Source: Armatimonadota bacterium
GTDB lineage: Bacteria; Armatimonadota; UBA5829; DTJY01
NCBI GenBank assembly: GCA_963663705.1
Contig: OY760504.1
Location: 2,711,217 to 2,775,216 of the forward strand
Reading direction: 5' to 3'
Length of the DNA: 64,000 nucleotides
The translations under genes were made by a program, and so were the position numbers. This document shows positions 39,526 through 44,003 of the stretch, one piece after another. Each line of letters starts with the position of its first letter. Position 1 is the first letter of the stretch. Below the pieces are notes generated by a model. The model worked only from the letters and a program-made list of their open reading frames with translations, did not search any database and was not told where the DNA came from.

Positions 39526-39584
39526 TGCAGAAATATATCATTACTTGTACAATACAAACGCACGTGCCTCGGGGATCCTCGTCA

Positions 39585-39830
39585 AAGCAGTGCACCGACT
39601 TTCCCTGGTTTTTTGCACGCATCGGCTGCTCGTACGATCCGTGCCTTGTATGCCGCCGAGAATCTCCTGCGTCCACTCGTCGCCGATACCTTCGGATCGG
39701 GAGTGTTTACAGATGCCGGATTACCTGATGCATCTAACTTGTTTGAATCCATTCCATGCCTCCTCGCCCTCTACACTAATTATACACTGGAGGCTGTTTC
39801 ATATATATTGACACAGAGGGTAGGCCCGAT
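39585..39830 (-). repeat. 245-bp direct duplicate of the IS3 5' terminus plus the first 56 codons of orfA (a second copy is at 40983-41218)
   Basis: Near-identical nucleotide runs, aagcagtgcaccgact ... ggctgtttcatatatattgacacagaggg, in both places. Confidence 0.8.
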
Positions 39831-40773
39831 CAAGCGTTTCGTTGCGAGCCTGGCTGACCGATTCGGCCATGCCATAGTGAACCATCTCCGGCGTCAGCAG
39901 GGCTATCCTGGAGTGATGATGCTCCTGATTATACCAATCGAAGAAGGTACCGCAGAATCCTCGTGCATCTTCGATGCTGCCGAATCTCTCCGGAAACTCC
40001 GGCCGGTATTTCATCGTCTTGAAATGGCTCTCCGAGAACGGGTTGTCATTTGATGTATACGGTCGGCTGTGCGTCTTGGTCGCCCCAAGGTCCGAGGGTA
40101 GCATCGCTACACATTTCGATCTCATAGATGAGCCTCGATCGGCATGGAGCGTGAGCTGCTTCGGGTCTGCTTCCTGTTTCCGTATAGTTTCACTTATCAG
40201 ATGCTTTGCCAACTCTGCGTTCTCCCTATATGCGATCATCCAGCCCACTACGTATCTGCTGAATACGTCGATGATCACGTAGAGATAGAAGTAGGTCCAC
40301 TTTGCAGGGCCTTTGAGTTTGGTTATATCCCAACTCCAGAGCTCGTTCGGCCGGGTGGCAAGCAACTCGGGTTTGGCATATTCTCCATGCTTTGTCTGGT
40401 TTCTGCGTTCACGGACTTCTTCGTTCTTATTGAGAATCCGATACATCGTGCTGATCGAGCAGAGGTAGACGCCTTCATCGAGAAGTGTGGCGTAGATCTC
40501 TGATGGTGGCATGTCCACGAACCTCTCGGAGTGCAAAACATCCAGAATGTGATCCCTTTCATTGTCAGATAGGGCACGCTCAGGCGTGATCGACTCTCTT
40601 GGTGGGACTGGATTGTCTTTGCGCTTCCAGAACCGATATGCCGATGCACGTGCGATACCCAACGCCCGACAAGCCTTTGTCCAGTTTGTAATGGAAGCCA
40701 GTCTCTTCGCAGCTTCCATTATTTCTCCTCTTCGGTCGAGATGCTCGTCGGAGCTATTCCAAGAATCTCGCAC
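39799..40773 (-). CDS. IS3-family transposase OrfB (integrase core), expressed as an OrfAB fusion by -1 frameshifting
   Basis: 324 aa; DDE motif. It overlaps orfA by 55 nt in the -1 frame. Confidence 0.85.
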   Translation of the reverse strand: MRDSWNSSDEHLDRRGEIMEAAKRLASITNWTKACRALGIARASAYRFWKRKDNPVPPRESITPERALSDNERDHILDVLHSERFVDMPPSEIYATLLDEGVYLCSISTMYRILNKNEEVRERRNQTKHGEYAKPELLATRPNELWSWDITKLKGPAKWTYFYLYVIIDVFSRYVVGWMIAYRENAELAKHLISETIRKQEADPKQLTLHADRGSSMRSKCVAMLPSDLGATKTHSRPYTSNDNPFSESHFKTMKYRPEFPERFGSIEDARGFCGTFFDWYNQEHHHSRIALLTPEMVHYGMAESVSQARNETLDRAYPLCQYI

Positions 40774-41150
40774 AAGTTTTTTTGGAACTCGATGATGAGC
40801 TCTGCCCCTTTGAGCTTCCTCTGCGTCCGTTCAAGTTCTCGGCGCAGTTTTTCAACTTCGGGAAGAAGCGGGTTCTTCGTCGGCTTCCGCCCGCGCTTGT
40901 CGTCGGTGAGTGCGACTTCGGCTCCATGCCGATATTCTCTGCGCCATTTCGTCAGATTAGAAGAATACAGTCCTTCTCGCCGAAGCAGTGCACCGACTTC
41001 CCCTGGCTTTTTGCACGCATCGGCTGCTCGTACGATCCGCGCCTTGTATGCCGCCGAGAATCTCCTGCGCCCACTCGTCGCCGATACCTCCGGATCGGGA
41101 GCGTTTACACATGCCGGTTTACCTGACGTATCTAACTTGCTTGAATCCAT
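40719..41150 (-). CDS. IS3-family transposase OrfA (HTH)
   Basis: 143 aa; typical IS3/IS911 OrfA with a leucine-zipper-like C-terminus. Confidence 0.85.
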   Translation of the reverse strand: MDSSKLDTSGKPACVNAPDPEVSATSGRRRFSAAYKARIVRAADACKKPGEVGALLRREGLYSSNLTKWRREYRHGAEVALTDDKRGRKPTKNPLLPEVEKLRRELERTQRKLKGAELIIEFQKNLCEILGIAPTSISTEEEK

Positions 41151-41220
41151 TCCATGCCTCCTCGCCCTCTACACTAATTATACACTAGAGGCTGTTTCAT
41201 ATATATTGACACAGAGGGGA

Positions 41221-41340
41221 GTGCGCAGCATATGGCTCAGGAACGATCTTGAAACTTTCAAGAAAAGACTCGCAGCACTTTCCGCCAAAGTAGCCCAGGA
41301 GAACTACATTCTCACTGAAGATTGGACCGGCACTCTCAAA
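41221..41340 (+). pseudogene. Fragment of an IS481-like transposase, cut by the IS3 insertion
   Basis: It begins exactly at the IS3 end with [28 protein letters not shown]. This continues the HTH region of the family represented at 11696..11902. Confidence 0.4.
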
Positions 41341-41344
41341 CGGA

Positions 41345-42490
41345 CACTTTATCAGGCAACTTTCACGGCATCGGCTTCAAACTCCACCGGGCTCTTGTAT
41401 CCAAGGTATGAGTGCATCCGTTGCCTGTTATAGAACACTTCTATAAAGTTGAAGATTTCCCTTCTTGCCTCATCTCGGGTAGTGAACTTCTTTCTGTATA
41501 TCAGTTCTTTTTTCAGGGTGCAGAAGAAGCTCTCTGCCACGGAATTGTCCCATGGATCTCCTTTCCTGCTCATAGAACACCTCATCTGGTGATTCTTAAG
41601 CAGTCTCTGATACTCCTTGCATGCATATTGGCCCCCTCGATCCGAATGGTGGATCAATCCTTCTTTCGGTCGCCGCGTTGTTACCGCCATTGCGAGCGCA
41701 TCCTGGGCGATCCTGCTCCTGAGACTTTTGCCCATAGACCAGCCGATTACCCGGCGTGAATACAGATCTATCACGCTCGAAAGAAACAGCCATCCTTCAT
41801 CTGTCCATATGTACGTGATATCGCTTACCCATACCTTGTTTGCGGCATCCACACGGAAGTCGCGCATCAGCAGGTTCGGATATACTTGGAATCTATGGTT
41901 TGAATCGGTTGTTATTCGGAAACGCCGCCGTCGCCTTGGGGCTATCCCAAGCTTACGCATAATCTTGCATATACGCCGCCTGCTGCAGTGTATGCATTCT
42001 CTTCGCATCTGTCGGCAAATTCTTCGGCTGCCGTACCTATCCCACTGTTTTTGAATATCGCAAGTACTTTGGAGCAAAGCATTTCTTCCTGTGCATCTTT
42101 TCGATTGGCAGCTATTGCCCATTGATAGTAGCCGCTTTTCGAAACTTTCAGCACTTTACACATGACGACGATATGGAACTGCTTGCTGTTTTGGCTGATG
42201 AACCGGTATCTCATCGCAGTTCCTTCGAGAAGATACCGATTGCTTTTTTTAGTATATCCCGCTCTTCAGTGACGCGGGCGAGCTTACGTCTCAGTCGAAT
42301 CAGTTCTTCGTGTTCGCTTGGCGCAATAGGCTTTTTGCCGTCCGGCCTTGTGCCGAACTCTCTCACCCATCGGCTCAGGACGTTCGGTGCGACCCCCAGT
42401 TCCCTGGCAATTTGGGATGTGCTCTGGTCACTTTGTTCTACAAGTCGGACCGATTCTGCTTTGAATTCATTTGTCTATTGTCTTTTTTTC
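41345..42490 (-). mobile_element. Second, different IS3-family element; degenerate (orfA start frameshifted, orfB split)
   Basis: orfB core 41352..42122 has DRGGQY and GDPWDNSVAESFFCTLKKE. The orfB N-terminal part (CKVLKVSKSGYYQW) is in another frame at 41942..42214. The orfA-like VEQSDQSTSQIARELGVAPNVLSRWVREFG lies at 42250-42455 and has no in-frame start. Confidence 0.7.
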
Positions 42491-42499
42491 ACTTGGTTT

Positions 42500-44003
42500 C
42501 CTCGCTCATATTATACGACTCTTTCCAAGTGTCCGTTTTAGGGGTTCCTTTCCAGAACTGACCGGTTTCCCTGGCGAGCCAAATCTTTTGTCGGTGGAAG
42601 GCCGGGTCATTTGCGATTCGTTGAGCCGTTCGGGAGATTTCTCATGCGCGGACAGCCTGGTCAATCAGATTTACCACAATATCTACTGGAGCGTCAGGGG
42701 TAACTACAGAAGCATACCGACAGATTGCCCTCAGAGAGATGAACGCCAGGGATGGTTTGGAGATAGATGCCAGGTATCCAGGGGGGAAATGTACCTTTTC
42801 GATACGGCGGCGATGCATACGAAATGGTTGAGAGACATAGAAGATTCTCAGCGTGAAGATGGTTCTCTTCCAGATCTGGCTCCGGCTTATTGGGCCATCT
42901 ACTCTGGCAGTATAACCTTCCCGGTTACCTTCGTGGCAATAGCGGGGCATCTGTATGATCTATATGGCGATACCCGCATCATTGAGACTCATTATCCTGC
43001 AATGAAAAAGTGGGTGGAGTCGATAAGTCTGAAAATGAAGGATTTCCTAATGCCGGATGACACCTATGGCGATTGGTGCGTTCCTCCGGAGTCTCTTGAC
43101 ATAATATGGTCAGAAGATCCGGAGCGAGTAACGGACAGGTCCTTGGTTTCTACCGCATATTTCTACAAAACCTTGAATTTGCTTTCTGGATATGCAAATA
43201 TTCTTGGAAAATCTGAAGACGCGGCGGAGTTCTCAGATTTGGCAGCAAAGGTCAAAGCCGCCTTTAACGGAAAGTATTTCAATAACGATGGGAATTTCTA
43301 CGGTAACAACAATACTCAGTCTTCAGGCATACTAACCTTGGCTTTTGGGCTTGTGAATGAGGAGCAGAAGCAAGCAGTTGTGGAAAATCTTGTAAGCAAT
43401 ATCCTGGTAAAGAATGAATGCCATATAGGCGCCGGTATGATGGGCGCTCAATGGATGATGCGCGCGCTCTCCGACAATGACAGGTCCGACATAGCTTGCA
43501 AGCTTCTATTCCAGACGACATATCCCGGCTGGGGATATATGCTTGGCGCAGGCGCGACCACCTTCTGGGAATTGTGGAATGGAGATAAGGGCGATCCGCT
43601 TATGAACTCCGGCAACCACGTTATGCAAATAGGCGACCTGTGCATTTGGTTGTACGAATACGTTGCAGGCATTGCGCCCGATAAATCAAAACCCGGTTTT
43701 AAACATATCATTATGAATCCCATAGCATTAGAGGAATTCAGTTCTGCAAAAGCTTCCCATAAATCCATGTATGGCAATATAACAAGCGAATGGAAGATCG
43801 TAAAGTCCTCTTTCGAGTGGGAAATCTGCATACCGGTGAATACATCGGCCACTGTCTATCTGCCAGCGAAAAATCCAGAATGCGTTGCCGAAAGCGGAAA
43901 CTCTTTAGCAGATGTGGAAGGCGTACGTTTTGTCGAAATGTCTGGAGACCGCAGTGTTCTTGAATTAGGCTCGGGTTGTTACTCATTCGTATCCGAATTT
44001 TAA
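42500..44003 (+). pseudogene. 5'-truncated GH78 alpha-L-rhamnosidase (C-terminal catalytic half only)
   Basis: The diagnostic SIPTDCPQRDERQGWFGD motif is present. Homology starts right at the IS3 boundary. The roughly 400-aa N-terminal part is absent. The ATG at 42471 is a spurious start. Confidence 0.7.

Follow-up and report, generated by a model that had tools for sequence, protein, structure and literature searches.

A cluster of defective insertion sequences appears to have taken the place of the promoter and roughly the 5' half of a GH78 alpha-L-rhamnosidase gene in an Armatimonadota bacterium

A stretch of 64 kb of DNA, here called the window, contains a GH78 alpha-L-rhamnosidase gene that begins in the middle of the protein, directly beside a group of insertion sequences. 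This raises the question how the 5' half was lost, and what the remaining part of the gene represents today. Very probably, a cluster of IS remnants now stands where the promoter and about half of the gene, its 5' part, used to be, and the remaining 482 codons are a pseudogene. Four IS remnants, all of them defective, are present at the locus, which has the following layout:

37579-39525, plus strand: GH42-like gene, the left neighbour of the spacer
39526-39577, no strand: spacer of 52 bp between the GH42-like stop codon and the inner breakpoint of IS-B, left edge of the second deletion (sequence read directly)
39578-39820, minus strand: IS-B, 5' fragment (about 243 bp) of an IS3-family element with the left inverted repeat and the first about 56 orfA codons
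39821-41218, minus strand: IS-A, 3'-truncated IS3-family element (Pfam and NCBIfam matches, protein and DNA alignments)
41219-41322, plus strand: fragment C, internal piece of an IS481-family transposase gene (tblastn against plasmids)
41323-42554, minus strand: IS-D, IS3-family element of 1232 bp (inverted repeat pair, homologues, DNA alignment to the related copies L090 and L091)
42555-44003, plus strand: GH78 3' remnant, 482 codons and a stop codon (Pfam, NCBIfam, homologue alignment, tblastn and PDB matches)

The window is rich in genes for CAZymes and sugar metabolism. GH39-like, CBM9, CE7/AXE1, GH123 and GH42-like genes were identified, together with genes for AraC regulators and a sugar ABC transporter, in agreement with an earlier note on this DNA, which had described the surroundings as CAZyme-rich. 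The same note had called the locus a hotspot, a claim that was not upheld; neutral accumulation in a safe haven would equally yield the nesting of ISs within ISs. The source DNA also encodes DUF1559 / N-terminal-methylation proteins, which, taken alone, would suggest an uncultured PVC-like bacterium.

The GH78 open reading frame of 1449 bp encodes only the catalytic (alpha/alpha)6 barrel and the C-terminal beta-sandwich domain. The Pfam search yielded a match to Bac_rhamnosid6H (PF17389) over profile positions 2-339 of 339 (E 1.8e-104) and a match to Bac_rhamnosid_C (PF17390; E 4.6e-20), and the N-terminal domains, including PF05592 and PF08531, were absent from the remnant. The NCBIfam model is covered from position 572 to 1026 of 1028, and in tblastn coordinates the remnant aligns from residues 249-348 onward of homologues with lengths of 740-841 aa. 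The PDB matches comprise residues 440-942 of 6I60 (E 9.2e-93) and residues 574-1028 of 3W5M (E 1.4e-81). The motif DCPQRDERQGW and all invariant columns of a 13-sequence alignment are retained. The earlier description of a gene that begins mid-protein was correct. Alignment to homologues places the truncation point at 42555, the first base past the IS-D terminus, which was itself set by alignment to two related elements, and the break is therefore flush with the outer end of IS-D. The open frame runs further upstream to a TTG at 42471, and these 28 codons are inverted-repeat sequence of IS-D. A full-length GH78 homologue aligning from residue 1 at 42471, which would have pointed to an untruncated gene, was not found; 42471-42554 is IS-D repeat. 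GH78 N-terminal sequence was not found anywhere within the 64-kb window.

GH78 entries of 459-581 aa exist in the databases, and a gene that is naturally short was considered. This was rejected, because the methionines at which these entries start are conserved, internal residues of longer proteins. At locus L088, the best match with recoverable flanking DNA (58% identity), a GH78 entry of 554 aa directly follows an ORF of 522 aa, which encodes the Ig_Rha78A_N and Bac_rhamnosid_N domains, resulting in about 1067 aa in total. The remnant contains no internal stop or frameshift over its 1449 bp, which points to a rather recent truncation or else to maintenance of the reading frame. When scaled from the decay of IS-D (2 lesions in 1232 bp), the probability of finding no lesion in the remnant is about 0.1, which is not significant.

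The IS3 family is characterized by a DDE transposase (rve), a length of 1.2-1.55 kb, inverted repeats that end in 5'-TG...CA-3', an overlap of orfA and orfB in the -1 frame with an A-rich slippery site, and a target duplication of 3-4 bp. Two different IS3-family elements are located on the minus strand of the locus (Pfam matches to rve and HTH_Tnp_1, NCBIfam matches to transpos_IS3, best E 1.9e-90). They are unrelated to one another, as had been proposed. IS-D (41323-42554) has TG...CA ends and extends from TGGAAAGGAACCCC... to ...CCGGTCCA, with imperfect inverted repeats of about 28 bp at 41323-41350 and 42527-42554. Its homologues, from contigs of 1.2-1.35 kb, are 80-83% identical, and the DNA alignment to the related copies L090 and L091 fixes both ends as well as both lesions. 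Codon 6 of orfA is TAG (42477-42475), in contrast to TAT in the relatives, and a 1-bp deletion near 42041 interrupts orfB, with a frame switch at 42041-42083 in tblastn. The orfA/orfB overlap is in the -1 frame, and L090 and L091 both share the slippery run of seven A that IS-D has at 42250-42244 (A_AAA_AAG). The orfB frame matches NF033516 with 303.8 bits against a curated cutoff of 160, while the orfA fragment, with 55.5 bits, stays below it; Pfam matches are rve, rve_2, rve_3 and HTH_21. Judged by model score, length, ends and frameshift site, IS-D is a member of the IS3 family. Its 3-bp flanks differ (GAT versus GAA) and there is no target duplication, the flanks being the interior of an IS481 transposase gene and the interior of the GH78 gene. 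Such flanks are compatible with a later deletion or recombination and are no argument against IS3-family membership. The earlier view of a degenerate second element, different from the first, was accurate, while its extent had to be revised from 41345-42490 to 41323-42554.

The left inverted repeat of IS-A ends at 41218, orfA spans 41150-40719 (143 aa), and a slippery run of seven A (A_AAA_AAC) at 40783-40777 is conserved in five related copies. The orfB is open from 40773 and its homology stops at Tyr318 (39821), so the last about 37 orfB codons and the right inverted repeat are missing. As called from its ATG, OrfB comprises 306 aa, compared to 338 aa in more than 100 homologues, and it scores 174.8 bits against the NF033516 cutoff of 160. 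The ends of this family, delimited by flank divergence and unitig ends, are CCCTCTGTG... and ...TTTTCCG, with a TGTGTCAA / TTGACA core a few bases inside, and the relatives are long, about 1.64 kb. Of the two repeats only the left one is present; the locus does not contain the right-repeat core, which would read GAGGCTGTTTCA on the minus strand. Candidate right repeats were rejected: both exact core matches are left ends, and a match with one mismatch at 28495 is without further similarity. The second left end belongs to IS-B, a sibling that is 94% identical to IS-A. The two copies form a direct repeat (39578-39823 and 40976-41221) with 93.9% identity and 15 mismatches (E 1e-105). Alignment to family members places the IS-B element end at CCCTCTGTG; its outer terminus at 39820 is flush with internal IS-A sequence (codon 318), and its homology may extend weakly to about 39570. 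What had been described as an intact IS3 element at 39585-41218 is thus a pair of same-end copies in direct orientation, without a right repeat and with an orfB that is about 37 codons too short. No element at the locus is intact, and none is likely to transpose today. Among the best 120 homologues, no other close IS-A-like or IS-D-like OrfB originates from the 3.78-Mb source contig, and on this indirect evidence the source seems to have lost close active copies of these IS3-type elements.

Between the termini of IS-A on the left and IS-D on the right lies fragment C, which corresponds to residues of about 105-139 of the about 356 residues of an IS481-family transposase. In a tblastn search against plasmids, which matched 527 records, it is 77% identical to annotated IS481-family transposases over 35 aa (E 6e-10), and 459 plasmid records cover at least 80% of the query. 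The match reaches 35 aa because one base of a Gly codon is supplied by the IS-A end. The trapped fragment of a third transposase that had been noticed here is real, although it comprises 104 bp instead of 120 bp and can be assigned to the IS481 family. A second IS481-family relic is found at 11.7 kb, 29 kb away and in opposite orientation, and its internal breakpoint and the left edge of fragment C lie within about 5 codons of each other. It was rejected as the missing half of fragment C, because 4 of about 20 overlapping bases differ and there is no match at the DNA level.

This layout cannot have arisen by insertion alone. It requires a minimum of two deletions, one of which ended flush with the IS-D terminus. 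The earlier claim that the gene was inactivated at the IS cluster holds for the loss of the 5' half and for a breakpoint exactly at an IS terminus, and fails for the mechanism, as the loss occurred by deletions and not by insertions. The order of events is not provable from one locus, and the most likely history is as follows. An IS481-family element (IS-C) would have inserted in or upstream of the GH78 gene, and IS-A and IS-D transposed into its transposase gene about 104 bp apart, as shown by their precise termini, which border directly on IS481 coding sequence at both ends of the 104-bp fragment. The sibling IS-B transposed into the 3' end of IS-A orfB, as shown by its left terminus, which is flush against codon 318 of IS-A. 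The non-matching flanks of IS-D argue for a deletion that ended exactly at its left terminus and took the rest of IS-C through the middle of GH78. It may have been an adjacent deletion mediated by the transposase, or the product of recombination with another copy of IS-D that had previously inserted into GH78. A second deletion would have removed most of IS-B, the tail and right repeat of IS-A, the 5' third of IS-C and further DNA, as far as a point 52 bp beyond the GH42-like gene; its endpoints lie away from IS termini, and thus illegitimate recombination is the probable cause. Lastly, IS-D gained the nonsense mutation and the frameshift that are visible in its sequence. The ancestral uninterrupted locus was not found among 80 GH78 loci of species-representative genomes, which are at most 53% identical (one partial match 56%), and none of the 80 has GH42-like, metallo-beta-lactamase-fold or transporter neighbours. 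One metagenome scan, with the GH42-like protein as query, retrieved only a partial match of 35%.

Three other explanations have to be weighed against loss by deletion. Recombination between distant IS copies might have inverted or translocated DNA, and the 5' half of GH78 would then survive elsewhere beside another copy of IS-D or IS481. Mismatched IS-D flanks are also expected from recombination between two copies, and the oppositely oriented relic at 11.7 kb, with its similar breakpoint, would fit such an event. However, the sequence differences between the two IS481 relics indicate that they are not halves of one copy, no sequence resembling a GH78 N-terminus is found beside that relic or anywhere in the window, and the best 120 homologues include no partner copy from the source contig, so that a rearrangement is improbable. 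A mis-join or repeat collapse in the assembly, with an intact GH78 gene in the real genome, is less credible still. In its favour, the locus contains an internal repeat of 246 bp, and short-read assembly breaks there: a Logan short-read contig, L082, matches the left junction with 100% identity and ends at 39639. Yet L081, a separately assembled ENA contig of 19.4 kb, contains the whole arrangement with 99.94% identity and differs by four homopolymer or short indels only, none of them at a junction. In addition, the junctions coincide with biologically defined IS termini, and the decay mutations of IS-D argue for a real, old locus.

The truncated gene could also still be in use, with the barrel and C-terminal domain expressed from IS-D-derived signals as a minimal rhamnosidase, starting at the TTG at 42471, which adds a hydrophobic leader of 28 residues, or at a GTG at remnant codon 14; both the expression and these starts are very improbable. 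The intact frame of 482 codons with all its invariant columns, its opening into the IS-D repeat, and an outward-pointing sigma-70-like match (9/12) at 42486-42514 are compatible with it, and KoRha, a two-domain GH78 enzyme, is active without extra N-terminal domains (PMC4690510). However, even KoRha keeps a beta-sandwich before the barrel (PMC4690510), and the remnant, which starts at SaRha78A residue 574, is without practically the whole of that domain. The number of promoter-like matches does not exceed chance (7 found versus 5.8 expected), the counts of the promoter and terminator scan in general were at chance level, no Shine-Dalgarno-like sequence precedes the TTG or the GTG, and the gene call in the independent contig L081 uses an internal ATG (404 aa) past the catalytic motif. 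It is very improbable that the IS-D terminus would supply the start codon, perhaps an outward-facing promoter, and the leader of a new minimal, possibly membrane-tethered rhamnosidase. If true, an expressed barrel-only GH78 enzyme would be smaller than any characterized one and would dispense with the supposedly universal beta-sandwich domain.

The preferred reading remains the replacement of the 5' half by the IS cluster: it is an ordinary case of the destruction of a sugar-degrading gene by mobile elements and later deletions, and no new principle is involved. The GH78 ORF should be annotated as a pseudogene and left out of the CAZyme repertoire of the organism, and for the neighbouring "IS3 element" an annotation as intact or active IS is not warranted. 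Apart from annotation the locus is of little importance, but it offers a tidy worked example of how the nesting of ISs, followed by deletions, erases genes.

Compared with characterized GH78 enzymes, the remnant aligns with SaRha78A (PDB 3W5M) and DtRha (PDB 6I60) throughout the catalytic barrel and the C-terminal domain and shares their conserved active-site motif. In contrast, everything before SaRha78A residue 574 or DtRha residue 440 is missing, i.e., the N-terminal Ig domain, the carbohydrate-binding domain and the beta-sandwich domains. All GH78 structures solved so far have a beta-sandwich domain ahead of the barrel; in SaRha78A it is domain F, from residue 427 onward, and the conserved two-domain core comprises residues 427-931 (PMC4690510). 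The minimal two-domain enzyme KoRha of Klebsiella oxytoca is of similar size (523 aa versus 482 aa) and indicates that extra N-terminal domains can be dispensable, but it keeps the universally conserved beta-sandwich domain (residues 31-179), which the remnant does not have (PMC4690510). With IS911, IS150 and IS3, IS-A and IS-D share an orfA (HTH), an orfB (DDE/rve), the -1 overlap and the seven-A slippery site. The IS-A subfamily deviates from these elements in the length of its relatives and in its OrfB of 338 aa, and apparently also in its ends, which as delimited read CCCTCTGTG... / ...TTTTCCG instead of TG/CA; both copies are defective, and a target-site duplication is demonstrable for neither. 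With residues 105-139 of WP_301255661.1, an IS481-family transposase of an Eleftheria terrae plasmid, fragment C shares 77% identity, but it keeps only 104 bp, without ends and without the catalytic domain, and therefore displays none of the IS481 hallmarks (single DDE ORF, inverted repeats, target duplication). Adjacent deletions mediated by ISs, deletions by IS-IS recombination and nested IS clusters occur in bacterial genomes. The present locus resembles them in an endpoint flush with an IS terminus, in non-matching flanks and in ISs inside ISs, and nothing distinguishes it from these known cases.

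A GH78 alpha-L-rhamnosidase gene is truncated at a cluster of insertion sequences, as the earlier note had claimed: homology to other GH78 genes starts right after an IS terminus, and Pfam detected no N-terminal domains in the remnant. About 3 kb devoid of cellular genes separate the stop codon of the neighbouring GH42-like gene from the GH78 open reading frame, which ends at 44003. The region is composed of the following features:

37579-39525, plus strand: GH42-like gene, whose stop codon forms the left edge of the gene-free stretch
39578-39820, minus strand: IS-B, about 243 bp of the left end of a second copy, 94% identical to IS-A
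39821-41218, minus strand: IS-A, IS3 family, 3'-truncated
41150-40719, minus strand: orfA of IS-A (143 aa; HTH_Tnp_1)
from 40773, minus strand: orfB of IS-A (rve, rve_3; NCBIfam transpos_IS3, 174.8 bits versus a cutoff of 160)
41219-41322, plus strand: fragment C, an IS481-family transposase fragment
41323-42554, minus strand: IS-D, an unrelated IS3-family element of 1232 bp with TG...CA termini and imperfect inverted repeats of about 28 bp
42555-44003, plus strand: GH78 remnant, with a complete Bac_rhamnosid6H domain (Pfam, E 1.8e-104) and Bac_rhamnosid_C

The remnant covers positions 572-1026 of the 1028-position NCBIfam rhamnosidase model. In an alignment with 12 relatives homology starts at ELTGFPGEP, the first codon past the IS-D terminus, and the preceding 28 codons, from a TTG at 42471, are IS-D repeat sequence. 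Searches with tblastn placed the truncation point not at residue 1, but at residues 249-260 of homologues of 740-751 aa and residues 339-348 of homologues of 827-841 aa. The matches to the multi-domain structures DtRha (residues 440-942) and SaRha78A (residues 574-1028) likewise leave out the sequence that both enzymes carry ahead of these positions. The closest homologue with recoverable flanking DNA (L088; 58% identity) has an upstream ORF of 522 aa that encodes Ig_Rha78A_N and Bac_rhamnosid_N, giving a total of about 1067 aa. Because of the homologue alignments and these upstream domains, "about half the gene" is a fair description of the loss, for which 250 residues is the minimum and about 570 the probable figure. 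The possibility that the N-terminal half lies contiguous elsewhere found no support within the 64-kb window, which was devoid of N-terminal GH78 sequence (tblastn).

At L088:8069-11273 (GCA_964519405.1, CAZFLA010000066.1), the 522-aa ORF with the N-terminal domains overlaps a 554-aa ORF for the catalytic part, a split call due to either a frameshift or an assembly error. Shorter GH78 database entries (459-581 aa) begin at internal conserved methionines, and many such entries in the protein collection are probably similar artefacts. The G+C fraction of the remnant (42600-44000, about 0.44-0.50) is lower than that of the GH42-like gene (37800-39400, about 0.54-0.59), and the GH78 gene may have been horizontally acquired.

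The element at 39585-41218, previously described as an intact IS3, is in fact two pieces. In IS-A, orfA and orfB share a -1 overlap located at seven consecutive A, and OrfB, as called, has 306 aa versus 338 aa in more than 100 homologues; the match ends at ...LDRAY, and about 37 residues (RQHPERFVRKQPEPP...LELLTN) are missing. DNA alignment with five related copies from other assemblies set the family ends at CCCTCTGTGTCAA... and ...TTGACATTTTCCG. The left end occurs twice in the window (outer termini 41218 and 39820), and the right end is absent from it. Self-comparison revealed one strong direct repeat (39578-39823 versus 40976-41221, 93.9% identity) and no further copy of any part of 39400-42700 within the window. 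IS-B differs from IS-A by 15 mismatches, seven of which are non-synonymous changes within the first 56 codons, and its left terminus is joined precisely to IS-A codon 318. Transposition characteristically leaves a terminus flush with the interior of its target; therefore, IS-B transposed into IS-A. No OrfB more than 84% identical to that of IS-A was present in the whole protein collection searched.

Alignment with two homologues defined the ends of IS-D as TGGAAAGGAACCCC... (42554, minus strand) and ...CCGGTCCA (41323), which replaces the former boundaries of 41345-42490. Its orfB homologues are 80-83% identical, 270-287 aa long, and lie on contigs of 1.2-1.35 kb. This copy is dead, because orfA codon 6 is TAG (42477-42475; TAT in relatives) and orfB carries a 1-bp deletion near 42041. 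Its 3-bp flanks are unlike (GAT versus GAA), and it is bordered by the interior of an IS481 transposase gene on one side and of GH78 on the other. The source contig is 3.78 Mb long, and among the 120 top-ranking homologues of either OrfB, the copies at this locus are the only ones on a contig of such length; by this indirect measure, it appears to be free of further close copies of IS-A and IS-D.

The trapped piece of a third transposase was correctly recognized, and can now be assigned to the IS481 family. Annotated transposases of this family from 527 plasmid records match its 35-aa peptide, the best of them at 77% identity (E 6e-10), and on a reference of 356 aa the peptide spans residues ~105-139. 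Since fragment C is bounded exactly by the termini of IS-A (left) and IS-D (right), both inserted into an older IS481-type element. Another IS481-family relic (11650-11963, minus strand), independent of fragment C and much reduced by deletions, lies in a 1.3-kb gap between an AXE1/CE7 gene (10195-11154) and a DUF1559 gene (12470-13174). It retains transposase residues 1-25, 48-~110 and ~215-229, with a break after 'GVRSI' at most about 5 codons from the left edge of fragment C (41219). The relic and fragment C are not two parts of a single copy: overlapping bases differ, and a DNA-level match is absent.

The junctions are directly observed, and from them we infer the order of events and the mechanisms. 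The earlier view that the insertions themselves deleted the 5' half does not hold; insertions remove no DNA, and thus at least two deletions are required. The first would have had one endpoint exactly at the left terminus of IS-D, and would have taken the 3' two-thirds of the IS481 element and all DNA as far as mid-GH78, either by transposase-mediated adjacent deletion or by recombination with another copy of IS-D previously inserted in GH78. The second would have extended from inside IS-B to 52 bp beyond the GH42-like gene, removing the remainder of IS-B, the tail and right repeat of IS-A, the 5' third of the IS481 element and further flanking DNA. Illegitimate recombination is its most likely cause, because neither endpoint coincides with an IS terminus.

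An independently assembled ENA contig of 19.4 kb (L081) matches 35724-46149 at 99.94% identity. The two differ solely by four indels, in homopolymers or of 3 bp (41898, 39449, 37436, 36066), and no junction is affected. The indels resemble consensus errors of long-read sequencing in L081 rather than true variation; owing to one of them, the GH42-like protein is called there with a reduced length of 638 aa. A short-read contig from Logan (L082) shows 100% identity as far as 39639 and spans the spacer/IS-B junction.

Residual function of the remnant was also considered. Its frame is open throughout and every conserved residue is present in the homologue alignment; this proves nothing, because, scaled from the decay of IS-D, the probability of an intact frame under neutrality is about 0.1. 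A promoter scan yielded promoter-like matches at chance level, and direct reading revealed no ribosome-binding motif upstream of candidate starts. A beta-sandwich domain precedes the barrel in every solved GH78 structure and is equivalent to the first part of the core of SaRha78A, residues 427-931 (PMC4690510). Even the two-domain KoRha of Klebsiella oxytoca, the smallest known active GH78, keeps this domain (PMC4690510), whereas the remnant, starting at SaRha78A residue 574, lacks it. Judged from sequence, it is thus very unlikely to be still functional.

At 12470-13174, 28510-29187, 29336-29947 and 58887-59549, interspersed with CAZyme genes across the window, lie genes for small proteins that combine an N-terminal methylation motif with DUF1559 (SBP_bac_10). 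Such scattered proteins are typical of Planctomycetota, Verrucomicrobiota and Lentisphaerota; by this sole clue, the source, an uncultured organism, looks PVC-like. Downstream of an AraC regulator, five genes in a row (19589-24597) encode four xylose-isomerase-like TIM-barrel proteins (AP_endonuc_2) and one GFO/IDH/MocA oxidoreductase, an unusually dense group of paralogous genes for predicted sugar-modifying enzymes.

The individual IS elements are uncharacterised members of known families. Every component of the locus belongs to a well-known family, i.e., IS3, IS481 and GH78, and the process is a textbook one, in which ISs nest and IS-associated deletion and pseudogenisation follow.
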